From: Candidatus Liptonbacteria bacterium
GTDB taxonomy: Bacteria; Patescibacteriota; Minisyncoccia; UBA6257; 2-01-FULL-56-20
Direction: 5' to 3'
Assembly (NCBI GenBank): GCA_023244895.1
Contig: JAHFLL010000001.1
Location: 489,802 to 553,801, forward strand
Length of the DNA: 64,000 nucleotides
The notes beneath the pieces are model-generated. The model was not told the origin of the DNA. It saw nothing but the letters and a program-made list of their open reading frames with translations, and did no database searches. The first letter of the stretch is position 1. Every line of letters begins with the position of its first letter. A program made the translations under genes and the position numbers. This document shows positions 4,706 through 45,719 of the stretch, one piece after another.

Positions 4706-6459
4706 ACTACTTCGGAATTATAACAGCTCTCACAGTAAACTATTTCCGGTCGATCGGGGGCATAGGAAGTTTCAAACTGATTAGGACATCCGCCCTGGTG
4801 GCTGTGGTTAGGCTTATCGCACATGCACCCTCGGGTCCAAAGTCTGAGCGGATTCCTTTCCGCCAATCTCTCATAGTGCCTGCAATTAGGGCAAAGCCTG
4901 GGCAGAGATAGGTTCATGCGCTTATAAAACTGTAGTTCGGCGGGGATAAGTTTGAAAGCAGTCACACAGCTTGCTTCACAGTTGGCGGTATGATGGTTCT
5001 CTTGGGCATGAAGACACCCTATCACCTCCTCTAGGATGGAGTCAGGGGTGTCTTTGATATGGTCCGGCAGGTCCTGGGGTTGTTTGGTCACGGTGTATTG
5101 CTTGGTATCTGGGTCTCTCCACTTGTATCCCTGAACTAGAGCCTGCTCTTTGGTTAAGGGGAAGTACTCCTGGGCGATGGTTTCGTTGTAGGAGAAGGGA
5201 GAGAGTTCCGGGGGGAAGAACTCCCCGTATTTATATACTCTGCCTAGTTTATCTATATAGGGCATAGTATTCATATGCTCTATGATCTGGGGGACCAGAG
5301 CTTCATACTCCTCCTTGGTGTATTGCTTGTTCAAAATACAGTACTGCTTGTTGCGCAGGGCGACGCAGGCAAAGATGTTCTGACAACCGTGAGAGGCATA
5401 ACTATACTGCACGTTATGCCCGCCCCAAACGAATATATCAAAGAAGAATTTGGTTCCATTTAATCCAGTGTCAACTGATTCATATATGAGCTCGCTTGTT
5501 TCCCCTATGCCATAGCCGTCGTAAGAATCACTCAGGCGCACTCCCCCATTGATACAGAACTTACAGTCGCGAATGCCACCCCAGAAGTCGAAGCATGCTT
5601 TACAGTTGCTGGCCTCTCCCACGTTGTCGCCGGTAGTATTTTCTACCTTATACGTATTGGCATACTTCCTTATCGCCTTAAGCTTGAGCTTCTCAAATTC
5701 CTCCTTTACTCTTAAAACATTTCTATAGCTGCCCAGGTCCAATTCCAGCAATTTCCTACCGTATTCTTCCTTGGAATAGGGCTGGTTGAAGATATGATAG
5801 GATTTACCACGCAGATTAGTACAACCAAAACAATCATTGCACCCCTTGCATTGATATAAAAAGGCGGAGTTGGTGCAATTTTCTGAATTCTGTATATAGA
5901 AAGAGTGGGCTATCTTTTCTGATGAAGAGCCCTCATATACTAACTCTGAGTCAGTAACATTAAGTGAGTCCTCCGAGTCCTTCACGTTGCCGCATTTGGA
6001 AACATAGTTGGAATCTTCTATGCCCCAACATGCATGAGAAAGGTAAGAATTTTTCGCCTCGCCGGTGTGATTGCAATAGTCGCTATTAGTAGCCCGCGAC
6101 AGGAATAATGCCGGCATCGGAACCTTGTTTAGCAGCTCGCGATATTGTCCAAAGAAGGATTTTTCAAAATCATACTCGACTCCATAAGAAAGCGGGTCCC
6201 AGGCATCCGACCACCACATATCCCTATCATAGACGTTTATGCCGCTCTCCGGAGAGAAACAGGTTATGACATCCTTATCGTTCAGAGATTTACGACGATA
6301 CAGAGACCTCTCGTTGCGCCAGCTCATTCTCCTCACGCAACGGCAGTCAGGACAAAATGTCGGCGGGGGCATCTTTATACGTTCGTAGAATACAAAATCT
6401 TCCGGTTCTATCGTAAAATCCTTTTTACAATTCTGGCAATTTCTAATTTCCGGTCCCAT
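4702..6459 (-). CDS. Cysteine-rich dual zinc-ribbon paralog, family copy A3
   Basis: A 585-aa ORF with the same architecture. A GGGAGG Shine-Dalgarno lies upstream of its ATG. It contains a roughly 365-bp tract nearly identical to paralog B1. Confidence 0.85.
   Translation of the reverse strand: MGPEIRNCQNCKKDFTIEPEDFVFYERIKMPPPTFCPDCRCVRRMSWRNERSLYRRKSLNDKDVITCFSPESGINVYDRDMWWSDAWDPLSYGVEYDFEKSFFGQYRELLNKVPMPALFLSRATNSDYCNHTGEAKNSYLSHACWGIEDSNYVSKCGNVKDSEDSLNVTDSELVYEGSSSEKIAHSFYIQNSENCTNSAFLYQCKGCNDCFGCTNLRGKSYHIFNQPYSKEEYGRKLLELDLGSYRNVLRVKEEFEKLKLKAIRKYANTYKVENTTGDNVGEASNCKACFDFWGGIRDCKFCINGGVRLSDSYDGYGIGETSELIYESVDTGLNGTKFFFDIFVWGGHNVQYSYASHGCQNIFACVALRNKQYCILNKQYTKEEYEALVPQIIEHMNTMPYIDKLGRVYKYGEFFPPELSPFSYNETIAQEYFPLTKEQALVQGYKWRDPDTKQYTVTKQPQDLPDHIKDTPDSILEEVIGCLHAQENHHTANCEASCVTAFKLIPAELQFYKRMNLSLPRLCPNCRHYERLAERNPLRLWTRGCMCDKPNHSHQGGCPNQFETSYAPDRPEIVYCESCYNSEVV
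5014..5378. repeat. Near-identical DNA tract shared with 38387..38750 (paralog A3 versus B1)
   Basis: By eye the two stretches are identical apart from a handful of SNPs. Flanking paralog DNA is alignable only at the protein level. Both copies encode ACVALRNKQYCILNKQYTKEEYEALVPQIIEHMNTMPYIDKLGRVYKYGEFFPPELSPF(S/A)YNETIAQEYFPLTKEQALVQGYKWRDPDTKQYTVTKQPQDLPDHIKDTPDSILEEVIGC. Confidence 0.8.
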
Positions 6460-6508: not shown

Positions 6509-6913
6509 CTATTCTACCATCCCCCTTTTCTTTAATTCTTCGTATAAATTACCGGCTAAAGCATCATGAAAAACGTCCAGAATATACGGGTTGGATTTGG
6601 CGGCCTCACTTGTCGCTTTTACTATGCCTTCTCGAAATGCCATGCCAAGAAGATTCTCTACCTCCAACTTCGTCTCCGGCGGAGCGGACTGAGCGTATTT
6701 CGGCAAGACCGAATCTTCCGACTTAGTAGGTTCTGCTGACCGGGCTACAGGAGCTACGCCCGTATAGGACTGGATAGACTGCTTGACCAGTTCGTGCCCG
6801 GAAACACCTTTCATCTCCGGATTTTCCTGATGACGCTTCAGCTCCGCGGCTACGCCGTGCAAATCTTGCTCTTGGACAGGTACTTTGATTTCTGGGGTTA
6901 GTTGATCGGGCAT
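6509..6913 (-). CDS. Hypothetical protein, 134 aa, at the head of the A paralog array
   Basis: An ORF on the same strand 50 nt upstream of A3. It has no recognisable motif. Confidence 0.45.
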   Translation of the reverse strand: MPDQLTPEIKVPVQEQDLHGVAAELKRHQENPEMKGVSGHELVKQSIQSYTGVAPVARSAEPTKSEDSVLPKYAQSAPPETKLEVENLLGMAFREGIVKATSEAAKSNPYILDVFHDALAGNLYEELKKRGMVE

Positions 6914-33774: not shown

Positions 33775-33923
33775 GCTACGAGCCCAATAATAAGGAAAAG
33801 CGGGGTTTTTGTAAAACGGCTAATTGTTAAATTTGGGTAATTTTTGTACAATGAACCCGGTTGGAAAACCAGCCGAATCTCCCTAAAATCCCGCCCTGCG
33901 GGATGGTGGGCAAAACAATATTT

Positions 33924-36900
33924 ATGGCTAAATTTACTCACTTACACACCCACAGCCACTACTCCCTCTTAGACGGCCTGACCCAGATAGACGCTATGGT
34001 AGGTAGGGTCAAAGAGCTGGGGATGGATTCAATTGCTCTTACCGATCACGGCGTACTCTATGGCGCGGTGGAGTTTTACAAGAAAGCTAAGAAGGCTGGC
34101 ATTAAGCCTATTTTAGGCGTAGAGACATATGTCGCTCCCAAAGACCGCTTCAGCAAGGAGGCGGGTGAAAGATACTACCACCTCATTCTACTCGCCAAAG
34201 ACAAGCAGGGCTGGAAAAACCTTATTAAACTAGTCACCGCCGCTCATCTGGAAGGATTCTATTACAAGCCCCGGGTAGACAAGGAACTCTTGCGCCAAAA
34301 TCACGAGGGGCTAATCGCCTCTTCCGCTTGTCTGGGCGGAGAGATAGACCAGGCACTACTGGCCGACAAATTTGATGAGGCGGTAAAAATAGCGAAAGAA
34401 TACGAAGAAATCTTCGGCAAGGGAAATTATTATTTGGAAATTCAAAAGCATCCCCACATACCGGAAGCGGAAAAAGTTTGGCCGCTTAAAATTAAATTAT
34501 CCAAAGAAACCGGAATCCCCCTTATCGCCACCCAGGACAGCCACTACACCTACCCGGAACAGGCGGAATATCATGATATTTTGCTTGCGGTTCAAACCGG
34601 CAATAAACTTTCGGACGACGACCGCCTATCGCTTAAGGAAGACGACTTCTCTATCGCTGGCCCGGACACAATGGCGGAGAGATTCGCGGAGGTGCCGGAG
34701 GCGATCTCCAACACTCAAGTTGTCGCGGACATGTGCAATGTGGAGCTAGAGTTGGGCAAGGTGCTACTGCCGGATTTTCAGAAACCGGACGGCAAGACTG
34801 CCAATCAGTATTTGCGAGAACTGGTTGAAAAAAGAATTGGCAATCGCTTCAAGCCGGAAGAACAGACCAAAGAGGTGCACGACCGCGTGGAATACGAATT
34901 AGGCGTGGTAGAAAAAACTGGTTTCGCGGACTACTTCTTAATAGTGCAAGATCTCATTAACTGGGCCAAAGACCATGGCATAGCGGTCGGTCCCGGCAGA
35001 GGCTCGGCGGCGGGCAGTTTGGTTTCTTATATTCTGAATATTACCGACGTTAATCCCCTGCCCTATGACCTATTGTTTGAACGCTTCCTAAATCCGGAAC
35101 GTATTCAAATGCCAGATATTGATATTGACTTCGCGGACAAGCGCCGGGACGAGGTTTTAGCCTACGCGCGCGACACCTACGGCGAAGATCGAGTGGCCCA
35201 AATTATTACTTTTGGAACCATGGCGGCGCGCGCCGCTATCAGAGACGCGGGCAGAGCCATGGGCATGACTTACGGCTTTTGCGACCAGATTGCCAAGCTA
35301 ATACCTCTCAACGAAAAATTGGCGGTGGCCATTAAAAAAGTGCCGGAGCTCAGTGAATTTTACAATACCAACCCGGATGCCAAAAAACTACTTGATGCGG
35401 CGGCGCACCTGGAGGGAGTCGCCCGCCACGCCTCCGTGCACGCTTGCGGAACAGTGATATCTAAGGAGCCATTGGTAAATGTGGTGCCGCTTCAATTCGC
35501 TCCGCAGGAAAGGAGTAATGTCATCACCCAGTTTGAAATGCACTCCGTAGAAGACCTGGGATTGCTCAAAATTGACTTCTTGGGGTTGCGGAATCTGACT
35601 ATTATTGAGAATACGGTGCGTCTCATAAAAGATTTGCACGGCGTGGATTTGGATATATCCAAACTGCCGCTTAACGACCAAAAAACTTTTGAGCTGCTGC
35701 AGGTCGGCAATACCACCGGAGTATTCCAGTTTGAGTCCAGCGGTATGCGCCGTTATATGAAAGAGATTGTGCCAACCGAATTTGAAGACCTGGTGGCGCT
35801 GGTGGCGCTATTCCGCCCCGGCCCAATGGAACTTATCCCCTCCTATATTAAGCGCAAACACGGCAAGGAGAAGATTACCTATCTACACCCCAAGCTGGAG
35901 CCAATTCTAAAAAACACCTACGGCATAGGTGTCTACCAGGAACAGATGATGCGTATCGCGCGCGACTTGGCCGGCTACTCTCTGGCGGAAGCGGATACTC
36001 TACGCAAAGCTATCGGCAAGAAGATTAAGGAGCTGCTGGACGAACAGGAAAGCAAGCTAGTGAACGGTATGATAAAAAATGGCATAGACAAAAAAATCGC
36101 CAAGGCCATTTGGGAGTTGTTCCCGCCCTTCGCGCGTTATGGCTTCAATAAAAGCCACGCGGTCTGCTATGCTCTAATCGGTTACCGCACTGCCTATCTT
36201 AAAGCGCACTATCCGGAAGAGTTCATGGCGAGCTTATTAAACGCGGAGGTAAATGATATTGAGCGGATTTCTTTGCTTATTAACGAGGCACGCCAGAATA
36301 AGGTAGATATACTGCCTCCCGATGTGAACAAAAGCTTTGTGGACTTCACCCCAGAAGGAGAAAAGATAAGATTCGGCTTACAAGCCATTAAAAACGTGGG
36401 CGAGGCTATCACGCAGGCCATTATTGAAGAAAGAGTAATGCGCGGACCGTTTACTTCTTTTAGTGAATTTTTAACTCGCACCCAACACAAGGATTTAAAT
36501 AAAAAATCTTTGGAGAGCATGATCAAGGCGGGTGTATTTGACTCGCTCGGGCTGGAACGCAATCAGGGACTTTTCAACTCGGATGAAATAGTTAAATTCG
36601 CCTCTAATTTCCGCAAGTCCCAAGAACAAGCCAGTAGCTCTCTCTTCGGAGCAGGCACCATGCCAACGCCAACCCTGATTCTCAAGGAGTGCCCACCCGC
36701 TACCTCCGCCCAAAAATTATCCTGGGAAAAAGAATTGGTAGGCTTCTACCTTTCCGACCACCCACTTAACAGCTATTTAGATGTTATAAAAAGAGTTAAC
36801 GCCAAACCCATCGCCGAAGTGCGCCAAATGCAAGACAGCGATGAAAAAGTGATTATCGCGGGCTGCGTTTCCAGTCTGAAAAAGATCACCACCAAGAGCG

Positions 36901-37094
36901 GACGCGCTATGATATTTGCCAGCGTAGAAGATTTTTCCCCTCAACCCATAGAAGTCGTAGTCTTTAACAGCACTCTCACTAAAACTCTCCCGGTCTGGGA
37001 AGTGGGAAACGTGGTTTTGGTGGAGGGTCATATGTCTTCTCGCAACGACGAGCCCAAGCTGGTCTGCGACAGAGCGCAGAAGATTAATAAATAA
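33924..37094 (+). CDS. dnaE: DNA polymerase III alpha subunit
   Basis: The PHP domain starts at MAKFTHLHTHSHYSLLDG. The polymerase core reads GLLKIDFLGLRNLT. A C-terminal OB fold is present. The start is set to the internal ATG at 33924, because the track ORF begins 21 codons earlier. Confidence 0.95.
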   Translation: MAKFTHLHTHSHYSLLDGLTQIDAMVGRVKELGMDSIALTDHGVLYGAVEFYKKAKKAGIKPILGVETYVAPKDRFSKEAGERYYHLILLAKDKQGWKNLIKLVTAAHLEGFYYKPRVDKELLRQNHEGLIASSACLGGEIDQALLADKFDEAVKIAKEYEEIFGKGNYYLEIQKHPHIPEAEKVWPLKIKLSKETGIPLIATQDSHYTYPEQAEYHDILLAVQTGNKLSDDDRLSLKEDDFSIAGPDTMAERFAEVPEAISNTQVVADMCNVELELGKVLLPDFQKPDGKTANQYLRELVEKRIGNRFKPEEQTKEVHDRVEYELGVVEKTGFADYFLIVQDLINWAKDHGIAVGPGRGSAAGSLVSYILNITDVNPLPYDLLFERFLNPERIQMPDIDIDFADKRRDEVLAYARDTYGEDRVAQIITFGTMAARAAIRDAGRAMGMTYGFCDQIAKLIPLNEKLAVAIKKVPELSEFYNTNPDAKKLLDAAAHLEGVARHASVHACGTVISKEPLVNVVPLQFAPQERSNVITQFEMHSVEDLGLLKIDFLGLRNLTIIENTVRLIKDLHGVDLDISKLPLNDQKTFELLQVGNTTGVFQFESSGMRRYMKEIVPTEFEDLVALVALFRPGPMELIPSYIKRKHGKEKITYLHPKLEPILKNTYGIGVYQEQMMRIARDLAGYSLAEADTLRKAIGKKIKELLDEQESKLVNGMIKNGIDKKIAKAIWELFPPFARYGFNKSHAVCYALIGYRTAYLKAHYPEEFMASLLNAEVNDIERISLLINEARQNKVDILPPDVNKSFVDFTPEGEKIRFGLQAIKNVGEAITQAIIEERVMRGPFTSFSEFLTRTQHKDLNKKSLESMIKAGVFDSLGLERNQGLFNSDEIVKFASNFRKSQEQASSSLFGAGTMPTPTLILKECPPATSAQKLSWEKELVGFYLSDHPLNSYLDVIKRVNAKPIAEVRQMQDSDEKVIIAGCVSSLKKITTKSGRAMIFASVEDFSPQPIEVVVFNSTLTKTLPVWEVGNVVLVEGHMSSRNDEPKLVCDRAQKINK

Positions 37095-37158: not shown

Positions 37159-37563
37159 CTATCTTTTAAGTAGGCTGGAATGATAAACGTTCGGTTCAAA
37201 AGATTTCATAACCTTCACCTCCGGATGCCAATCAAACTCATCTAAGTGGGATCGAAGAGAATCTGCCAGCTGGACTTGGTCGTAGCCCAAAGCGATAACT
37301 TCCGGACGATGCTGCCTCACCACTCCCCAAGTTTCTATTTCCGCGTCCCCTATCACCACCTGGTCCACCTCGTCTTCGTCCAACAAGTGCTGGAACCTTT
37401 CTTCTAGATTCATTTCCGGTAAATGACCCTTTAAATGTTCAATCACATGGTCCTGCGCCACAACGGCGATCAAGTACTGACCCTGATTTTTAGCTTCTTT
37501 TAAAAACTCGCGATGCCCGCGATGTATACCGTCAAATGTTCCAAACACCATTACCTTACGCAT
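37159..37563 (-). CDS. Cytidylyltransferase-like HxGH nucleotidyltransferase (RibL/TagD/NMNAT-like small nucleotidyltransferase)
   Basis: VFGTFDGIHRGHREFLKEAK carries the (T/H)xGH motif of the nucleotidylyltransferase alpha/beta fold. At 134 aa its length is typical of archaeal-type FAD synthase or glycerol-3-phosphate cytidylyltransferase. Confidence 0.65.
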   Translation of the reverse strand: MRKVMVFGTFDGIHRGHREFLKEAKNQGQYLIAVVAQDHVIEHLKGHLPEMNLEERFQHLLDEDEVDQVVIGDAEIETWGVVRQHRPEVIALGYDQVQLADSLRSHLDEFDWHPEVKVMKSFEPNVYHSSLLKR

Positions 37564-37595
37564 TGCAGAATGAATTATGAATTAAGAATTGGGAA

Positions 37596-38039
37596 TTAGG
37601 GATAGTGGATGAGGATGCCCGCGGACTTGCTAAATTCGTGTTCGTCTTTAGCGCCTTCTGAATCTTCCCAGCGCGGACCCATAAAAATATCCGTGACGTA
37701 GCCCGAACCCAAAACATCTCTCCAGAATATTTTAAAATCAGCGTCTGGCAGTGATTCCAAGTTTATGGCGCCGTACACGTCTTCGCTAAATACATCTACC
37801 GCCGAAAAAATAGGAAAGTCATTAGCCTTCCTAAGCTGCTCCGCGAAATCATCTAGGGCGCGAATATTCTCCCATATTTTATCCCGCCCATCCGAAGCAA
37901 TCATTCCAGCTACATATCCTAGCTTCTCTTGATTACCTCTAAACTCCTTAATCGTTGAAAGCAGGGTGGCCTTTAGACTATCCAAGTCTTTTATGGAGTC
38001 TATCTCGGATTGTATTTTATCTCTTATTTTTTTGTGCAT
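37596..38039 (-). CDS. DUF4406-like protein (nucleoside 2-deoxyribosyltransferase-like fold)
   Basis: LGYVAGMIASDG and DIFMGPRWEDSEGAKDEHEFSKSAGILI recall the YxAGP...W..S.G...E pattern of that family. This rests on my memory of the family and is tentative. Confidence 0.35.
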   Translation of the reverse strand: MHKKIRDKIQSEIDSIKDLDSLKATLLSTIKEFRGNQEKLGYVAGMIASDGRDKIWENIRALDDFAEQLRKANDFPIFSAVDVFSEDVYGAINLESLPDADFKIFWRDVLGSGYVTDIFMGPRWEDSEGAKDEHEFSKSAGILIHYP

Positions 38040-38116
38040 GTTAAATAGTTGGAATTAGGATTTATTTAGAAATTAGAGCAATTAGAAATTTACTTTCTAC
38101 GCTCTACTCTGTGTCT

Positions 38117-39835
38117 TCAAGCCACTTCCGCATTATAACACTGCTCGCAGTAAACCATCTCTGGCCGGTCGGGCGCGTAACTGGTTTCAAACTCATTGGA
38201 GCAACCCGGCTTCATACACTTGCGATGCCAGAGCTTATAGGGATTTTTAAGCTTGAGGCGTTCGTAGTGCCTACAATTAGGACATAATCTAGGAATAGGT
38301 AATCCTATCTTCTTGTAAAACCCCAGCTCTTGGGGTATCAGCTTGAAAGCCGACGTGCATTGATGATTGCATCTTGCCCCATGCCCACACCCTATCACCT
38401 CCTCTAGAATAGAGTCGGGGGTGTCTTTGATGTGGTCCGGCAGGTCCTGGGGTTGTTTGGTCACTGTGTATTGCTTGGTATCTGGGTCTCTCCACTTGTA
38501 TCCCTGAACTAGAGCCTGCTCTTTGGTTAAGGGGAAGTACTCCTGGGCGATGGTTTCATTGTAGGCGAAGGGAGAGAGTTCCGGGGGGAAGAACTCCCCG
38601 TATTTATATACTCTGCCTAGTTTATCTATATAGGGCATAGTATTCATATGCTCTATGATCTGGGGGACCAGAGCTTCATACTCCTCCTTGGTGTATTGCT
38701 TGTTCAAAATACAGTACTGCTTGTTGCGCAGGGCGACGCAGGCAAAAACGTTTGAAGAGGCGTTGCAAAAGTCGGTAAATTCAACATTGGCCAGGTTGCC
38801 AATAGAGTTGGTGGAAAATTTTATGCCAGTGCTTTCTCTTCCTCCGGTCGCATATTCGTAGGATAAATCAGAATAAATGAGTCCGCTTATATCCATACTA
38901 TCTTTTAGATAGTATACGCGCATGGCGTTCTTGACGTTTTCAAGCTCCCAGCCCTCAAAACAGTTATGGCAATTTTTGGCGTTAGAAATAGCATCTCCAT
39001 CGGAATTAGCGCACTTTATGACGTCCGCCCAACGATGTAGACAGTTTTCCATCATCACCCTAAATTCAGTTTTAAATTTATCTAGATTAGAATGGCTTCC
39101 AAAATCGAATTCTTCCGACACTTTTTTACGATATTCTTCCTTGGTATATTGCTTATTGCGTATCACATACCTCTTATTCCTTAGGTTGTGAGACATTACG
39201 CAGTCCTGGCAATTCACGCAGTCAAACAGAAACCAGGAATCCACACAGTCAGTAGCGCGAAAAATAAAATGGCAGTTATTACATCTACCCGAATATGCGT
39301 CCCCGTAACACATATTGAGGCTCTCTGCATTTAAACAATCATAAGCATGAACAGAATTATCTACTGCCCGAGAATAATAAACATCTTCACAGTTAACGAC
39401 CGAGTACCCTAAGTAAACATTCTTAGATTCTCCGGTCATGTTGGAATAGCTGACGTTCTCGGAGTTATGGCGTTGCCACAGAGCCATGTGCGGTACCGCT
39501 CTGCGCAATTCCACAAACTGCTCAAAAAATGTCTTGGAAAAATCATACTCCCGACCATACTCTATCGCTTCCCACCCATCCGACCACCAGCAATCATTGC
39601 AATACACGACCAACTCCTTGTCTGGGGAACAGAAGGTAATAGTGCTCTTCCCACAAAGCGCGCATGCCCCCTTATACAGAGAGCGCTCATTGCGAAAGCA
39701 GATCCTTCTCTGTAGTCGGCAATCCGGACACCAGGTTGGAGGCGGAACCTTAATACGCTCATAGAAACCAAAATCATCCGGCTCTATTACAAATGCGCTG
39801 TGACAACTTTGGCATGTCTTGGTTTCCGGTTCCAT
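38117..39835 (-). CDS. Cysteine-rich dual zinc-ribbon paralog, family copy B1
   Basis: A 572-aa ORF reading MEPETKTCQSCHSAFVIEPDDFGFYERIKVPPPTWCPDCRLQRR...YAPDRPEMVYCEQCYNAEVA. It contains the near-identical tract shared with A3. Confidence 0.85.
   Translation of the reverse strand: MEPETKTCQSCHSAFVIEPDDFGFYERIKVPPPTWCPDCRLQRRICFRNERSLYKGACALCGKSTITFCSPDKELVVYCNDCWWSDGWEAIEYGREYDFSKTFFEQFVELRRAVPHMALWQRHNSENVSYSNMTGESKNVYLGYSVVNCEDVYYSRAVDNSVHAYDCLNAESLNMCYGDAYSGRCNNCHFIFRATDCVDSWFLFDCVNCQDCVMSHNLRNKRYVIRNKQYTKEEYRKKVSEEFDFGSHSNLDKFKTEFRVMMENCLHRWADVIKCANSDGDAISNAKNCHNCFEGWELENVKNAMRVYYLKDSMDISGLIYSDLSYEYATGGRESTGIKFSTNSIGNLANVEFTDFCNASSNVFACVALRNKQYCILNKQYTKEEYEALVPQIIEHMNTMPYIDKLGRVYKYGEFFPPELSPFAYNETIAQEYFPLTKEQALVQGYKWRDPDTKQYTVTKQPQDLPDHIKDTPDSILEEVIGCGHGARCNHQCTSAFKLIPQELGFYKKIGLPIPRLCPNCRHYERLKLKNPYKLWHRKCMKPGCSNEFETSYAPDRPEMVYCEQCYNAEVA
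38387..38750. repeat. Near-identical DNA tract shared with 5014..5378 (paralog B1 versus A3)
   Basis: See 5014..5378. Confidence 0.8.
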
Positions 39836-39873
39836 TTTTTTACTTTTTACATTCTACCTACCACCTTCCATCT

Positions 39874-41598
39874 TCACGCTACTTCCGCATTGTAGCATTG
39901 CTCGCAGTAGACGACCTCTGTCCCGTCGGGACGGTAGCTGGACCTAAACATATTGGGGCACCTGCCCTCGGGATGGTTGGTATGGCTCGCGGTATTTTGA
40001 TACACCTTATAGTCACATCTGCATTGCTGAGGGGCGGAAAGGCGATTCGGACCGCGGGCGGTCATGCGTCGGTCGTGACGACAATCGGGACACATCCTGG
40101 GAATTGGAATATTCAAACGCTTATAGAATTGCAACTCTGGCGGAATAATACGATAGTTTTTATCGCATTTTACGCAAGAAAATATCTCCCTACTCACATC
40201 CGCCACGTTAAGGTCTCCTATGGCGTCCGGAACGTTATCCCATTTCAAAGTTTCTTTGCCATAGGTACCGCGGGGATATTCTTCCCAGCCGAATCCCAGC
40301 GCCTCCGCCCTCTCTTTCGTAAGCGGAAACTGTTCTTGAGCAACAGTTTCGTTATATCCGAAGGGACCGAGTGAAGATGGGAAAAATTCTCCATATTCTC
40401 CGCTCACCTTCATGTCCCCCACTATCTTATCTCGCAAAGATTCATATTCATCTTTGGAATATTGCTTATTCAAAATGCAATAATCCTTTTTGCGCAAACC
40501 GGCGGAACCCAGGCAGTGGTTGGAATTAAAACAATTAAGGGCATACTCCATAAAGGTAGAACTCCAGGCCTGCGCGCAGGACACACAGTTAGACACGTCT
40601 ATGCCGGTATTAATGGAATTATAGATTGTGCTTGCGTTTCTGCCCGCGGTGCTCACGTCCACGCAATCCTTAGCGTTGCGCCAAACATGCTCTCCGTAAG
40701 CGCAATCTTCCGCTTCATAAGAATGGAAACACTCTCGGCAGTTTTTCGCGTCGGATATGTAGTTCCCGGATGAGCCCGGCGCGTTTACAATCTCCGCGTA
40801 TTTTCTGGGCTGGGTTTTAATAAATTCTAAAAACTTGGCGCGCATAGCCTCTACCCCGCTTGCGGTATCAAGCCGTGCCTCCGTTATAAACCCTTCATAT
40901 TCTTCTTTGCTTAAGGGCTTATTGAAGACATAGTATTGGCGATTACGCAGATTGACGCATCCAATACAGTCACTGCAACCCCTACAGTCGTACAGAAAAT
41001 AGGAGTTTCTGCTGTCATAACAAACTTTACTATAGACAAGCTGATAACAGTTGTAGCAATCGTCACTTTCATAAGAAAGTTCGGTCTGGTGCGAGAAAGA
41101 AAGGTCCAGCGAGTCCCGACATTGCTGTACCCAATAGGAATGAATACAACCTTCATTGTTGGAGGACTCTACCAGCATATAGCAATCCTTATTATCCGCG
41201 GAAATATTCACGTACTCCGAGTTCACGCTACGCACGTAAATCAGCGCCACCTTGGGCACTTTTTTATAAATCTCATTAACCTGCTCTAGAAATGGCCGGC
41301 TTGGGTCATAATCCTGACCGTATTCTGTCGCGTCCCAGTCATCTTTAAACCAGCACTCATAGCACCAAACCGGATATGGTTTATTGGGACTATACATGGA
41401 AACCACCTCCCGCTTGCACTTATCGCAGGCGCGCTTATAGAAGACACGCTCGTTACGAAAAGCTAGTCTGCGCTGGGCGCGACACAAGGGACACATTTTC
41501 GGCAAAGATACGCCGATTTTTTCGTAAAACGTAAAATCATCCGGCTCTATCGTAAAGTCCTTTTTGCAGCTCTGGCAGGTTTTAGCTTCCGGTCCCAT
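39874..41598 (-). CDS. Cysteine-rich dual zinc-ribbon paralog, family copy B2
   Basis: A 574-aa ORF reading MGPEAKTCQSCKKDFTIEPDDFTFYEKIGVSLPKMCPLCRAQRR...YRPDGTEVVYCEQCYNAEVA. Confidence 0.85.
   Translation of the reverse strand: MGPEAKTCQSCKKDFTIEPDDFTFYEKIGVSLPKMCPLCRAQRRLAFRNERVFYKRACDKCKREVVSMYSPNKPYPVWCYECWFKDDWDATEYGQDYDPSRPFLEQVNEIYKKVPKVALIYVRSVNSEYVNISADNKDCYMLVESSNNEGCIHSYWVQQCRDSLDLSFSHQTELSYESDDCYNCYQLVYSKVCYDSRNSYFLYDCRGCSDCIGCVNLRNRQYYVFNKPLSKEEYEGFITEARLDTASGVEAMRAKFLEFIKTQPRKYAEIVNAPGSSGNYISDAKNCRECFHSYEAEDCAYGEHVWRNAKDCVDVSTAGRNASTIYNSINTGIDVSNCVSCAQAWSSTFMEYALNCFNSNHCLGSAGLRKKDYCILNKQYSKDEYESLRDKIVGDMKVSGEYGEFFPSSLGPFGYNETVAQEQFPLTKERAEALGFGWEEYPRGTYGKETLKWDNVPDAIGDLNVADVSREIFSCVKCDKNYRIIPPELQFYKRLNIPIPRMCPDCRHDRRMTARGPNRLSAPQQCRCDYKVYQNTASHTNHPEGRCPNMFRSSYRPDGTEVVYCEQCYNAEVA
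41526..41583. repeat. 58-nt identical tract shared with about 43271..43328 (N-terminal coding ends of B2 and B3)
   Basis: aaaacgtaaaatcatccggctctatcgtaaagtcctttttgcagctctggcaggtttt is identical in both. It encodes KTCQSCKKDFTIEPDDFTFY. Confidence 0.7.
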
Positions 41599-41641
41599 TT
41601 CTTTTTTTTACTTCCTACGTTTTGCCTACCACTTTTTATCT

Positions 41642-43345
41642 TTACGCCACTTCTTGATTATAACAACTCTCGCAATACACTATTTCCGGTCGGCCGGGGG
41701 CATAGCTGGTTTCAAACTCATTGGGGCAGTCCGACTTCATGCATTTGCGGTGCCAGAGCCTGCGGGGATTGCGCATTTTAAAACGCTCTGTTCTGCGACA
41801 GGGATAACAATATTCCGGAACCGGGATACCCATTTTGCGATAGATCATAAGTTCCGTAGGGTGTAAACGGAAAGCACCCACGCAAAGCGGGTTCCTTGTT
41901 TTTGCTTCTTCATCTTCTTGTGTTCGACAACCGATAGTTTGGCTTAGGATATCATCCGAAGCCTCAGCTACGGTGGACGGCAATTGGTCTGGAGTCATAG
42001 TGACTTTATGGTTGGTAGCCGGCTTGTCGTACCAACTATAACCCTTTTGAATTGCCTCTTCTCTAGTCAACGGAAAGTAGTCCTGCGCCATAGATTCGTT
42101 ATAGGCGAACGGGGAGACATCCGGAGGATAGTATTCGCCCCACTCCCCGGTTTTTCTCATATGCTCTACGATCTTCTTTTTTAAATCCAAATACTCCTCC
42201 TTGGAATATTGTTTATTCAAAATGCAATACTGTTTTTGTTTCAATCCAAAACAGCCGAAACAATTATTAGCACCAAAACACATGTCGCAATAACAGGAAT
42301 CAGTTATGGTGCTAAAGCAACTGCGAGCGACGATGGTGCGATGCGGGGTATCCACCCCTTGCGTCTCGTAGGATAGTTCGGCATTTATTATTTCCGTGCA
42401 ATCCCTACAGTCCTCAGTGTTTCGCCAAGCATCCTGCATATAGGCCACATCCTTATTGTCGCGACAGTTAAAACAATAATTCGCTCTTTGAGTGTTCTCC
42501 AGGTAGTCTCCGGAAGATTCCTGAGCCTGGGTACCGTGATAGTTTTTTACCGGCTTAGTTAATCTAAAGCCAGCGAATTTTTTAAGTTGCTCCCGGATAG
42601 ACAATCTTGTCCGGGTAAACTCTTTCTTTCTTTGCTCGTATTCCTCTTTAGAAAGCTGTTCGTTAAACCAACAATATTGCTTATTTCTTAATCCCCAACA
42701 GCCGAGACAATCGACGCAACCTCGACAGTCATCCGAAAAATAGATGTTTACACAGTCGGCGCAATTGCTTATCCAGGCGCAATTGGAACATTTTGCCAAG
42801 TTAATGCTCTCGTAGCAGAGTTCGGAGCTCTCTATCATGTAGCAATCAGAACACATAAAGCACTTGCGCTGGTTCCAACTGCCATACATGCACTTTTCGC
42901 TGGTATCGCTCGTGACCAGCATGTAGCAGTCCTTGTTATCTTGGGACTGATTTGTGTATTCACTATTTACGCTATTCGCATTAACCAAAGCAAGATGAGG
43001 AACTACTCGGCGCAATTCTTCGTATTGCTCAAAAAACGGGCGGTTGAAATCAAAGTTCCGCCCATAAACGGATGCGTCAAAAGCGTCCGATTTCCAATAG
43101 TCCTGCTTGTAGACCGGAAATGAGACGTCTGGTCGGTAAATGGAGATTATGTCCTCCCCGGTAGCATCGCACTTGCGCTTATAAAAGTTGTACTCGTTTC
43201 TATCCGAAAGCCGCCTAATATATCTGCACTCCGGGCAAAGAGTCGGAGGCGGCACATCTATTTTTTGATAAAACGTAAAATCATCCGGCTCTATCGTAAA
43301 GTCCTTTTTGCAGCTCTGGCAGGTTTTTACTTGAGATTCGGTCAT
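41642..43345 (-). CDS. Cysteine-rich dual zinc-ribbon paralog, family copy B3
   Basis: A 567-aa ORF reading MTESQVKTCQSCKKDFTIEPDDFTFYQKIDVPPPTLCPECRYIRR...YAPGRPEIVYCESCYNQEVA. Its start overlaps the NUDIX stop (ATGA). Confidence 0.85.
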   Translation of the reverse strand: MTESQVKTCQSCKKDFTIEPDDFTFYQKIDVPPPTLCPECRYIRRLSDRNEYNFYKRKCDATGEDIISIYRPDVSFPVYKQDYWKSDAFDASVYGRNFDFNRPFFEQYEELRRVVPHLALVNANSVNSEYTNQSQDNKDCYMLVTSDTSEKCMYGSWNQRKCFMCSDCYMIESSELCYESINLAKCSNCAWISNCADCVNIYFSDDCRGCVDCLGCWGLRNKQYCWFNEQLSKEEYEQRKKEFTRTRLSIREQLKKFAGFRLTKPVKNYHGTQAQESSGDYLENTQRANYCFNCRDNKDVAYMQDAWRNTEDCRDCTEIINAELSYETQGVDTPHRTIVARSCFSTITDSCYCDMCFGANNCFGCFGLKQKQYCILNKQYSKEEYLDLKKKIVEHMRKTGEWGEYYPPDVSPFAYNESMAQDYFPLTREEAIQKGYSWYDKPATNHKVTMTPDQLPSTVAEASDDILSQTIGCRTQEDEEAKTRNPLCVGAFRLHPTELMIYRKMGIPVPEYCYPCRRTERFKMRNPRRLWHRKCMKSDCPNEFETSYAPGRPEIVYCESCYNQEVA

Positions 43346-43788
43346 TTTGCTAAACGGAGATATTCTTTTACGCCCCTGAGCCAGCCACCCTTAAACTTTT
43401 CCTCCGGGCGGAAAGTTCTAACATCTTCCCAGCTCATTTCCGTATGACGTTTTGATAATTTAATTTCTCCTCCAGTCAACTTTGCTTCATAGCCGATTGC
43501 GAAAATCTGGACCTTCAACTTTCCCCCACTCACGCTCTCCTGTCTTTCGTGGCGCATAAAAACAACCGGCTGACCGAGTTTATACTTCACGCCTCCCAGC
43601 TCCTCTTTGATTTTCCGAGCGATAATCTTCTCTATCGGTCTGCCGAACTCTTCCGGCAACATTCTGCCACCCGGCAAGTCCCAGCACCCAAAAGAATCCT
43701 TTAAAATCAACAGCTTGTCTGCCTTGCGTAAAAAGACCTTAAAAGCCACAAAATACAGGCCTTTACCGTTTAAGCTGTCCGATTTCAT
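43342..43788 (-). CDS. NUDIX hydrolase
   Basis: The Nudix box reads GGRMLPEEFGRPIEKIIARKIKEELGG, matching GX5EX7REUXEEXGU. The gene is translationally coupled to B3. Confidence 0.8.
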   Translation of the reverse strand: MKSDSLNGKGLYFVAFKVFLRKADKLLILKDSFGCWDLPGGRMLPEEFGRPIEKIIARKIKEELGGVKYKLGQPVVFMRHERQESVSGGKLKVQIFAIGYEAKLTGGEIKLSKRHTEMSWEDVRTFRPEEKFKGGWLRGVKEYLRLAK

Positions 43789-44076
43789 TGCTTAATATTA
43801 CCACCCACCAGCTAAAAGATGCCAGAAAAATAAAGGTCATCACCTTGACCTCAAATGTATGTTTTAGCCTCTACCTCTGTAGCAGAAGTGGGGGCAAACA
43901 TATTGTTGCTGTCCATATAATCTGTCGCAGGAAATAGGTTTTTATATAAATTTATTGCCTATTTTATAAAGTGTGTTGCTGTTAGTGATTTTGGGGATAA
44001 GTGCCCTATTCTTGCAATATATTATTTTGAGTAAAATGAAATTGCCACAGAGTATGTGGTTTTTTAATTAGAACAG

Positions 44077-44198
44077 CTCTTTTGCACGGGATAAGATAGC
44101 TCAATAAGACTGGCTCCGACAGAAAACCTTAACCTCCCAAAATCGTCTTATCTGACTGATCAATCTCTTATCCCGTACAAAGGAGCCGTTGATAAAGT
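44077..44198. repeat. Long imperfect palindrome in the AT-rich lysS-NUDIX intergenic region
   Basis: The arms gctcttttgcacgggataaga (44077-44097) and tcttatcccgtacaaaggagc (44178-44198) are reverse complements at 19 of 21 positions. Nested ataagac/gtcttat repeats lie between them. Confidence 0.4.
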
Positions 44199-44267
44199 AT
44201 CCTAATGTGATTATAGCACTCCGTAAATAGGAGGTCTGTTGATAACCCCATTTTAGCCTTATAAAGC

Positions 44268-45719
44268 CTACTTTCCCTGCGGACGCATTAGAGGAAAAAA
44301 GACGGTCTCCCGCACGGGCTTGTCCATTAGGACCGCAAAGAGTCGCTCGGAAGTGCCAAAACCCGCCGCGGGTGGCATGCCGTACTCCAACGCCTCCAGA
44401 AAGTCTTCGTCCAGCATTTGAGCCTCCTTGTCCCCTGCCTCACGCAATTTCATCTGGTCCTCAAAGCGCGCGCGCTGGTCAATCGGGTCATTGAGTTCCG
44501 AAAAGCCCTTGCCAAGCTCCGTGCCCGCGGCCAAAATCTGGAACCTCTCTACCTGACCGGGTTTTTTATCACTACGCTTGGCCAATGGCTCAATCTCTAC
44601 TGGCGGGTCTATCAAAAAGCAGGGCTGAAGCAATTTCGGCCGAACGGTCTTTTTATATATCAAATCTATGAGCCGTCCCTTGCCTAAATTTTCTTCCAAA
44701 TCAATCTTCAAAGATTTGGCCTTCTTCTTCAACTCTTCCACGCTCGCATTCACGGGATTCAAGCCATTTTCTTTTTCAAATATTTCTACATAGTCCACAG
44801 AGGGCCACTTGCCCGACCAATCTATTTCCTGCCCACCATAAGTGGTTTTTAGACTACCCGTAACGTTTTTAATGGCCTTTTGATACACATCCCGCATTAG
44901 ATCCATCGCGTCGTGATAGTCGCGATACGCCCAATAAAACTCCATCTGAGTGTAGTCCTGTAAGTGCTCCTTATCTATGCCTTCGTTGCGAAAGATGCGT
45001 CCGATCTCAAACACCGCGTCAAATCCGCCCACTAAAAGCTTCTTAAGAGGAAGCTCCAGGGAAATGCGTAGATAAAAATCCGTATCCAGCGCGTTGTGGT
45101 GGGTCACGAACGGCTCCGCTTCCGCTCCACCAGGAATCGCTTCCAGAACCGGAAGCTCTACTTCCGTAAATCCATTTTTAGTAAGCTCGGTACGAAATGT
45201 TTGCCAGAAAATATTTTTCTTTTCAAAAGTCTTACGCAGGTCCTGGTCCATTACTAAATCAAGATAACGTTTGCGCAAGCGGGTCTCCGCGTCTTCCAGA
45301 CCGAAATGTTCGGTCGGTAATGGCCTTAGACTCTTTGAAAGCATAACCACCTTCTTGGCGGACACACTCTTGGTGCCACGATTAGTGACCATCAGTTCTC
45401 CGCTAACGGAAATAAAGTCGCCCCGGTCCAGATTAGCCTGCCAGAAATCAAAATCACCCAAATCCTGCTTGCGCAAGACCGCCTGGATTTCGCCGGTAGA
45501 ATCCCTTAGGTCGGCGAAGATCACGCCCCCCTGATCGCGCAAGGTGATAGCGCGGCCCGCCAAAGATACGGTCTCGGCGCCAGCCATTAGAGCGTCAAAG
45601 CCAGCCAACGCCTCGCCTATACTGTGGGTACGCTCGGTTTTTATGGGATAGGCCGATACCCCCGAGGCGTTTATCCGGTCCAGCTTTTTCTTACGTTCCT
45701 GTATTATTTCGTCTAACAT
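44268..45719 (-). CDS. lysS: Lysine--tRNA ligase, class II
   Basis: An N-terminal OB anticodon-binding domain is followed by class II motifs (FRNEGIDKEHLQDYTQMEFYWAY; GFGTSERL). Confidence 0.9.
   Translation of the reverse strand: MLDEIIQERKKKLDRINASGVSAYPIKTERTHSIGEALAGFDALMAGAETVSLAGRAITLRDQGGVIFADLRDSTGEIQAVLRKQDLGDFDFWQANLDRGDFISVSGELMVTNRGTKSVSAKKVVMLSKSLRPLPTEHFGLEDAETRLRKRYLDLVMDQDLRKTFEKKNIFWQTFRTELTKNGFTEVELPVLEAIPGGAEAEPFVTHHNALDTDFYLRISLELPLKKLLVGGFDAVFEIGRIFRNEGIDKEHLQDYTQMEFYWAYRDYHDAMDLMRDVYQKAIKNVTGSLKTTYGGQEIDWSGKWPSVDYVEIFEKENGLNPVNASVEELKKKAKSLKIDLEENLGKGRLIDLIYKKTVRPKLLQPCFLIDPPVEIEPLAKRSDKKPGQVERFQILAAGTELGKGFSELNDPIDQRARFEDQMKLREAGDKEAQMLDEDFLEALEYGMPPAAGFGTSERLFAVLMDKPVRETVFFPLMRPQGK

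Follow-up and report, generated by a model that had tools for sequence, protein, structure and literature searches.

In the bifunctional proteins of the NadM-Nudix/NadR type, a nicotinamide mononucleotide (NMN) adenylyltransferase is combined with a Nudix domain, and NUDIX, N-deoxyribosyltransferase-like and NMNAT-like folds occur in defence systems centred on nicotinamide adenine dinucleotide (NAD) or adenosine diphosphate-ribose (ADP-ribose). DUF4406 (PF14359) is represented in the Protein Data Bank (PDB) by a structural-genomics target from Pseudomonas aeruginosa (APC5043, PDB code 1t1j), and it falls within the N-(deoxy)ribosyltransferase-like fold group, to which NDT, DNPH1/Rcl and BlsM/MilB belong. 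Our literature search on DUF4406 returned incidental mentions only, and no demonstrated activity was found for any member. Small HxGH proteins annotated as cytidylyltransferases include the archaeal-type RibL (PMC11423594), and Parcubacteria have been reported to be without ribF/ribKL yet to keep the flavin adenine dinucleotide (FAD)-dependent enzymes MurB and TrxB (PMC4508563). Here, we analysed a 64,000-nt stretch of DNA from a Candidatus Liptonbacteria bacterium (in the following, the window), in which genes for a NUDIX protein, a DUF4406-like protein and an HxGH nucleotidyltransferase lie on either side of three genes for cysteine-rich paralogs, B1, B2 and B3. These six genes (37159-43788) are referred to as the B string (Table 1). 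A second array of paralogs in the same window, the A triplet, served as a comparison.

We consider it likely that the B string is an ordinary stretch of the compact, nearly unidirectional chromosome of the Patescibacteria (Paceibacterota type), and not a functional module. It would be coincidental that the fast-evolving zinc-ribbon triplet has three small, unrelated enzymes around it, in a juxtaposition that arose by chance and was fixed in one small clade. As a local accident of gene order, the neighbourhood says nothing on the function of the paralogs.

This view draws on the surroundings of other paralog arrays. A family-profile search located 78 array loci in other Patescibacteria genomes, holding 1-8 copies per array, and these were searched together with 10 kb of flank on either side. 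The loci were queried by tblastn and blastp with the NUDIX, DUF4406-like, HxGH, DnaE, LysS, GreA and GT2 sequences. Neither a NUDIX orthologue nor a DUF4406-like gene was found in any of the 78 loci by these searches. The NUDIX family is ~60% identical across lineages and would thus be readily detected. As a control, most other genes of the window were also found to match none of the array loci, while the flanks of the A triplet match 3-6 of them, which reflects true synteny. The A triplet itself has none of the NUDIX, DUF4406 and HxGH genes beside it. In distant genomes, a linkage of array, NUDIX, DUF4406 and HxGH above chance is not observed.

An earlier note on this DNA had stated that the B triplet lies among genes for nucleotide-acting enzymes, and this is literally correct. 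Our analysis confirmed the coordinates, common strand and tight spacing of the six open reading frames (ORFs), including the overlap of the NUDIX and B3 genes. The NUDIX, DUF4406/N-deoxyribosyltransferase-fold and HxGH calls hold as well, as judged from profiles, PDB matches and, for the DUF4406-like protein, the fold match of an AlphaFold2 model. The note had further taken the co-location as a hint that the paralogs are nucleotide-related, and had made this dependent on related arrays keeping the enzyme trio as neighbours. That suggestion is not borne out, since all 78 arrays stand without NUDIX and DUF4406 genes, the A triplet does so as well, and synteny is confined to sister and near lineages.

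The arrangement of the B string is also that of its surroundings. Of the 77 ORFs called greedily across the window, 64 share the minus strand. Gaps between same-strand neighbours have a median of 31 nt, 45 of 61 being no longer than 80 nt, and nine pairs of genes overlap. The gaps of the B string, which from HxGH through B3 measure 32, 77, 38 and 43 nt, are not tighter than this background, nor is its strand arrangement. Tight co-directional spacing is therefore the default of the genome and no sign of a dedicated operon. Consensus scans revealed no intergenic terminator-like site inside the B string, and its genes may well share read-through transcripts, as is probable for most genes of the genome. 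Such read-through transcription carries no information on function. The B string is bordered by dnaE on one side and by the housekeeping run SecY-Adk-Map-GreA-LysS on the other, with greA and a GT2 glycosyltransferase gene upstream of lysS. Its guanine-cytosine (GC) content is unremarkable and without anomaly, and mobile-element genes were noticed neither within the string nor beside it.

A conserved neighbour of the paralogs could nevertheless be identified. The 78 array loci contain 26 homologues of a TraG-like ATPase, whose Pfam content (DUF87, T4SS-DNA_transf, TraG-D_C) is that of TraG/VirD4/HerA-like proteins. In 19 cases the ATPase gene directly adjoins a paralog gene and has its orientation, and no homologue lies more than three genes away from a paralog (odds ratio 10.9, p = 1.5e-8). 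By comparison, no homologue is present among the 610 ORFs of the DUF4406 loci described below. In the window, the gene immediately downstream of A1 encodes such an ATPase but is cut by the window edge after 343 residues, and this N-terminal fragment is 52-54% identical to 790-aa proteins of two array loci, L001 (L001:4826-7198) and L067. These data show that the conserved partner of the paralogs is a TraG/VirD4/HerA-like ATPase. Directly upstream of the A triplet lies upA, whose product has no Pfam or NCBIfam match. The order of a small protein in the position of upA, paralogs and 790-aa ATPase is kept in L001/L022, L040 and L067.

Table 1. Features of the B string, its surroundings and the A locus within the 64,000-nt window.
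Feature	Position	Strand	Size or best match	Remarks
HxGH nucleotidyltransferase	37159-37563	minus	134 aa	stand-alone; probably RibL/RibF-type FMN adenylyltransferase
DUF4406-subfamily protein	37596-38039	minus	147 aa	N-(deoxy)ribosyltransferase-like fold (model)
B1	38117-39835	minus	572 aa	Cys-rich multi-zinc-ribbon paralog
B2	39874-41598	minus	574 aa	Cys-rich multi-zinc-ribbon paralog
B3	41642-43345	minus	567 aa	Cys-rich multi-zinc-ribbon paralog
NUDIX-fold protein	43342-43788	minus	148 aa	non-canonical box GGR-x4-EF-x9-RK-xx-EELG
lysS-NUDIX spacer	43789-44267		479 nt	lineage-specific insertion with hairpin
lysS	44268-45719	minus	NF001756, 540 bits	upstream housekeeping neighbour; last of SecY-Adk-Cmk-Map-GT2-GreA-LysS run
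dnaE	33861-37094	plus	NF005298, 1374 bits	convergent with the gene string; downstream boundary
upA	6509-6913	minus	134 aa	first gene of the A locus
A3-A2-A1 (A triplet)	6459-1127	minus		follows upA
TraG/VirD4-like ATPase	1017-1	minus		N-terminal part; follows A1

The NUDIX protein probably belongs to the Nudix superfamily (MutT-like, ADP-ribose pyrophosphatase-like), given its similarity to MutT-related proteins, of which 3grn is the best PDB match (5e-4), and the retained G-x5-E and EE-x-G elements. Its Pfam NUDIX match (6.7e-4) scores 20.1 bits, just under the cutoff of 21.1, and many of its orthologues have precomputed PF00293 hits. The family comprises 635 homologous clusters across Liptonbacteria, Nomurabacteria, Sungbacteria and Paceibacterota. 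However, the canonical Nudix box G-x5-E-x7-R-E-U-x-E-E-x-G-U is not present. The box of the window protein instead reads G-x5-E-x10-R-K-I-x-E-E-L-G, the family form being R-K-U-x-E-E-L-G, with a lysine in place of the metal-binding glutamate of RE and a spacer that is longer by three residues (x10 vs x7). The RK and EE-L-G core does not vary among the 33 aligned orthologues, and all of them retain the longer spacing. Two further motifs downstream, FMRHER and GGWL-G-EY, are also conserved in the family and lie outside the canonical description. The modified box and the extra motifs point to a change in catalysis or substrate, and the protein, as a member of a conserved Paceibacterota family, probably still binds a nucleoside-diphosphate-X substrate.

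Of the DUF4406-like protein, only the C-terminal 30 residues match PF14359, with 19.3 bits (E = 0.0015) and just under the cutoff of 22, and the C-terminal motif W-x-x-S-x-G-A-x-D-E-H fits the Pfam model. Its family consists of 54 clusters; of 53 members that were aligned, 47 match DUF4406 at E ≤0.01, the lowest E value being 1e-5. PDB sequence searches with either the single sequence or the family profile returned no match, and only a fold search was successful. The AlphaFold2 model, which has a predicted local distance difference test (pLDDT) score of 90.7, gave 1t1j as the top PDB match (probability 1.0, TMt 0.62). Matches in BFVD (probability 1.0, E down to 9e-5) include phage nucleoside deoxyribosyltransferases, DUF4406 proteins and blasticidin-M/CMP-hydrolase-like proteins, as well as phage proteins in which an N-deoxyribosyltransferase fold is fused with a dATP/dGTP diphosphohydrolase domain. 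The predicted structure is thus that of an N-(deoxy)ribosyltransferase-like fold. Compared to DUF4406, the window protein possesses an extra N-terminal helical segment of ~35 residues, and it belongs to a small subfamily of the Candidate Phyla Radiation (CPR)/DPANN type. Residues G41, Y42, V43, G45, D117, W124, G129 and E133 are invariant in the family alignment, and the position of the motif suggests that D117/E133 could be equivalent to the nucleophile of NDT and DNPH1.

We then considered the neighbourhood from the side of the enzymes. A metagenome scan and look-ups of encoding contigs yielded DUF4406-like loci in 56 independent groups. Paralogs lie within three genes of the DUF4406-like gene in only two of these, both from close relatives (70% and 97% identity), and an HxGH gene does so in only one of the two. 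NUDIX genes are found more often; they adjoin the DUF4406-like gene in 5 of the 56 groups and are at most three genes away in 10. Nudix-box ORFs occupy 10 of 222 neighbour slots of DUF4406, against 12 of 1190 background ORFs (odds ratio 4.6, p = 9e-4). In one locus a canonical NUDIX domain is fused to the DUF4406-like protein (L123:4077-4946), and in another the fusion partner is a DNPH1/Rcl-like 2'-deoxynucleoside 5'-phosphate N-hydrolase domain (L110:26-1015; PDB codes 2khz and 4fyh, ~3e-6). A third protein (L091:1613-2515) carries a C-terminal domain of 150 residues, for which no PDB match was obtained. The adjacency to NUDIX genes and the fusions support a sequence of pyrophosphatase and N-glycosidase steps on nucleotides. 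The DUF4406-like protein probably acts as an N-glycosidase or transferase on nucleotides or nucleosides, and would most likely cleave off or exchange the base of its nucleoside or (deoxy)nucleotide substrate. Together with canonical NUDIX pyrophosphatases and DNPH1-like N-hydrolases, beside or fused to which it is found elsewhere, the family might convert a nucleoside triphosphate (NTP) or nucleoside diphosphate-X (NDP-X) to the monophosphate (NMP, in this scheme the nucleoside form) and further to base and sugar phosphate, in salvage or sanitation.

The proposal that such genes combine in nucleotide pathways is therefore supported in part, as DUF4406-like genes of other genomes do show a true association with NUDIX genes. 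The part that does not hold concerns the window itself. All NUDIX partners of DUF4406-like proteins elsewhere have the canonical x7-RE box, whereas the RK-box protein of the window is from a different subfamily and is encoded 5.3 kb from the DUF4406-like gene. These findings also bear on the idea that NUDIX, DUF4406 and HxGH genes once formed a salvage operon that was split when the B array was inserted or expanded within it, in which case the enzymes would be linked mutually and not to the paralogs. Such a history would be in line with the enrichment of DUF4406-like genes beside NUDIX genes, the single fusion of the two, and the phage proteins that join an N-deoxyribosyltransferase fold to dATP/dGTP diphosphohydrolase domains. 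We regard it as unlikely, however, given that the partners elsewhere are of the x7-RE type and that RK-box orthologues do not neighbour DUF4406 in any of six contexts. In five other lineages, the NUDIX orthologue is located between DprA and TopA or beside a helicase, a beta-eliminating lyase, Peptidase_S51 or RecG, and thus in a different context each time. Moreover, this lineage is the only one with HxGH near DUF4406, and no relative was found in which the enzymes are adjacent without an array.

The paralogs themselves offer few clues to a function. Homologues of B2 form more than 6400 clusters, all of them unnamed or "hypothetical" and mostly from Patescibacteria; the lineages named among them are Liptonbacteria, Jorgensenbacteria, Minisyncoccia and other Patescibacteria lineages. 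An AlphaFold2 model of B2 was obtained with a pLDDT of 83 (60-70 in the central repeats) and a predicted template modelling (pTM) score of 0.86. A fold search of the PDB with this model yielded no significant match (best E = 0.49), and it has no recognisable nucleotide-binding domain. The beta-helices of gamma-carbonic anhydrases that headed the list, with E values of at least 0.49, were rejected as noise. The sole Pfam signals in the paralogs are weak treble-clef zinc-finger matches, which for B1 are zf_Tbcl and zf_Tbcl_2. The Cys-rich repeat region of B3 (residues 126-223) matches the phage family phrog_15341 (1.6e-9), as do B1 and B2 weakly. A literature search on PF13451, zf_Tbcl and TIGR04272 found no paper, and one on Cys-rich paralogs in Patescibacteria found nothing relevant.

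The arrays evolve fast, and much faster than their flanks. B3 and B1 are 77% identical to their orthologues in the sister lineage L153, compared to 95-98% for the flanking genes. The gene at the position of B1 in the near lineage L079-L089 is 44% identical, compared to 84% for DnaE and 81% for HxGH. Between the two arrays of the window, A3 (5014-5383) and B1 (38387-38755) have a tract of 370 bp in common that is 97.3% identical, with the rest of the proteins at ~40%, which indicates a recent gene conversion between arrays that are 33 kb apart.

The full gene order of the B string is kept only in these two lineages. L153, whose flanking genes have just been compared with those of the window, has the order SecY-Adk-Cmk-Map-GT2-GreA-LysS-NUDIX-paralog-paralog, and in L079-L089 the DUF4406-like protein and B2 are 70% and 74% identical to their counterparts. 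Some observations weigh against regarding the string as an ordinary stretch of chromosome. A 4-nt overlap (ATGA) joins the stop of NUDIX to the start of B3, and this, together with the order kept in the nearest relatives, makes co-transcription likely in this lineage. An HxGH-class gene is located directly beside or inside the array in L035, L043 and L073, which are three of the eight loci with such a gene, and its presence in 8 of 78 loci exceeds the naive expectation for a single-copy gene. The string might accordingly be a true operon specific to the lineage, in which a ligand derived from nucleotides is produced or broken down by the enzymes and acts on, or modifies, the zinc-ribbon paralogs, so that these would be nucleotide-related in this clade. 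The common strand and short gaps, the overlap, the order in L153 and L079-L089 and the HxGH-class genes at the three arrays are what such an operon would lead one to expect. We nevertheless hold it to be distinctly unlikely, because the other arrays and the A triplet do without NUDIX and DUF4406, because the spacing equals the genome baseline, and because the model of B2 shows neither a nucleotide-binding fold nor a PDB match. In addition, the overlap of NUDIX and B3 is already replaced by a gap of 10 nt in the 90%-identical L153, and the adjacency of HxGH genes to arrays is not significant.

The last point can be specified as follows. HxGH homologues are detected by BLAST in 4 of the 78 array loci, the searches giving 4-5 hits, and HxGH genes of the whole TIGR00125 class in 8. 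Apart from the three loci with a directly neighbouring gene, such a gene is one gene away from the array in this lineage and in L006. Since the positions immediately next to the arrays hold 21% of all non-family genes in the loci, three of eight at these positions is not a significant excess. An enrichment of HxGH genes near arrays was rejected as evidence for the same reason, and also because the Poisson expectation hinges on the copy number per genome. It therefore appears a rather remote possibility that arrays and small HxGH genes are truly, if loosely, associated, with the B string as a genuine operon and a nucleotide-derived molecule made for or attached to the paralogs.

As to the HxGH protein itself, its motif GTFDGIHRGH and its scores with CTP_transf_like (PF01467; 2.4e-13, 50.9 bits, cutoff 21) and TIGR00125 (54.4, cutoff 27.7) place it firmly in the nucleotidyltransferase class, TIGR00125 being the only, generic, NCBIfam domain that it reaches. 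It also passes the Pfam FAD_syn model (PF06574) with 30.5 bits against a cutoff of 27. None of the NCBIfam equivalog cutoffs is attained, be it for ribF (24.4 vs 184), coaD (12.9 vs 103), NMNAT (16 vs 341) or NadD. The best PDB match is a Thermoplasma protein of 143 residues (3glv, 5e-12), followed by human ethanolamine-phosphate cytidylyltransferase and TagD. In an exhaustive search, 780 representative clusters of the family were obtained at E ≤1e-10, most of which are stand-alone proteins 130-145 residues long. Ten multi-domain relatives were found. One of these, P0332, is 41% identical over the full length and fused to a riboflavin kinase (Flavokinase), and another, P0351, is fused to FAD_binding_4; the fusions of the other eight are heterogeneous and unrelated to flavins. 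No riboflavin kinase or FAD_binding_4 gene was found elsewhere in the window.

In its size of ~135 residues and its stand-alone form, the HxGH protein resembles RibL, and the FAD_syn score, the match to 3glv and the flavin-domain fusions of relatives likewise point to the flavin mononucleotide (FMN) adenylyltransferases of the RibL/RibF type. It differs from these in the missing equivalog matches and in the otherwise heterogeneous fusions of its family, and it has no cysteines, while two are conserved in RibL of M. jannaschii (PMC11423594). It does equally well with the models for TagD, ECT and RfaE domain II, and its substrate may hence be a different one. We favour FMN adenylyltransferase as its most likely activity, on a balance only slightly in favour, and the protein would then most likely be a stand-alone FAD synthase of the RibL/RibF type. 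To this extent it looks like an ordinary housekeeping enzyme, an outcome that the earlier note had set against its own proposal, though no equivalog cutoff is reached. Similarity to the NadM-Nudix/NadR-type proteins is limited to the presence of HxGH and NUDIX in one neighbourhood. The HxGH protein stays far below the NMNAT cutoffs. Its gene is separated from the NUDIX gene by 5.8 kb and four genes, and the two are never adjacent in the other genomes examined.

That the region is an island for NAD- or ADP-ribose-centred defence or anti-defence, as had also been brought up, is highly improbable: the folds are known from such systems and the NUDIX protein has one weak PADLOC match (candidate PDC-S07, 1.3e-4), but the other five of the six proteins have none and no PADLOC system is matched, the HxGH protein matches NMNAT models only at E = 0.006-0.1, and the string lies in housekeeping surroundings with neither a GC anomaly nor visible mobile-element genes and with a NUDIX family that is conserved across the phylum.

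Upstream of the NUDIX gene, the spacer to lysS is far longer than the corresponding gap of 22 nt in L153 and is a lineage-specific insertion. Within it lies, on the minus strand, a near-perfect hairpin of ~115 nt (~44072-44190), and folding of the whole spacer gave a z value of -3.7. An Rfam scan of the spacer produced chance-level hits only and no family. The spacer has no ORF, and BLAST found no copy of it elsewhere in the window or in the collected loci. In a consensus scan, positions 44048-44021 were marked as promoter-like and positions 43852-43833 as terminator-like, and the spacer could hold a putative promoter of the string that begins with NUDIX and B3.

The Cys-rich family, with more than 6400 clusters and several copies per genome, is without annotation in the Patescibacteria. 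As the biology of these organisms is mostly inferred from gene neighbourhoods, a misleading call of guilt by association would spread. The present analysis removes the nucleotide lead for the paralogs and replaces it with a statistically supported partner, the TraG/VirD4-like ATPase. It also provides a modest gain in annotation for the three enzymes, namely a DUF4406 subfamily that would be a partner of NUDIX and DNPH1-type enzymes, a Paceibacterota-wide NUDIX family marked by an RK box, and an HxGH family that is a candidate for the FAD synthase reported missing in Parcubacteria despite their need for FAD (PMC4508563).

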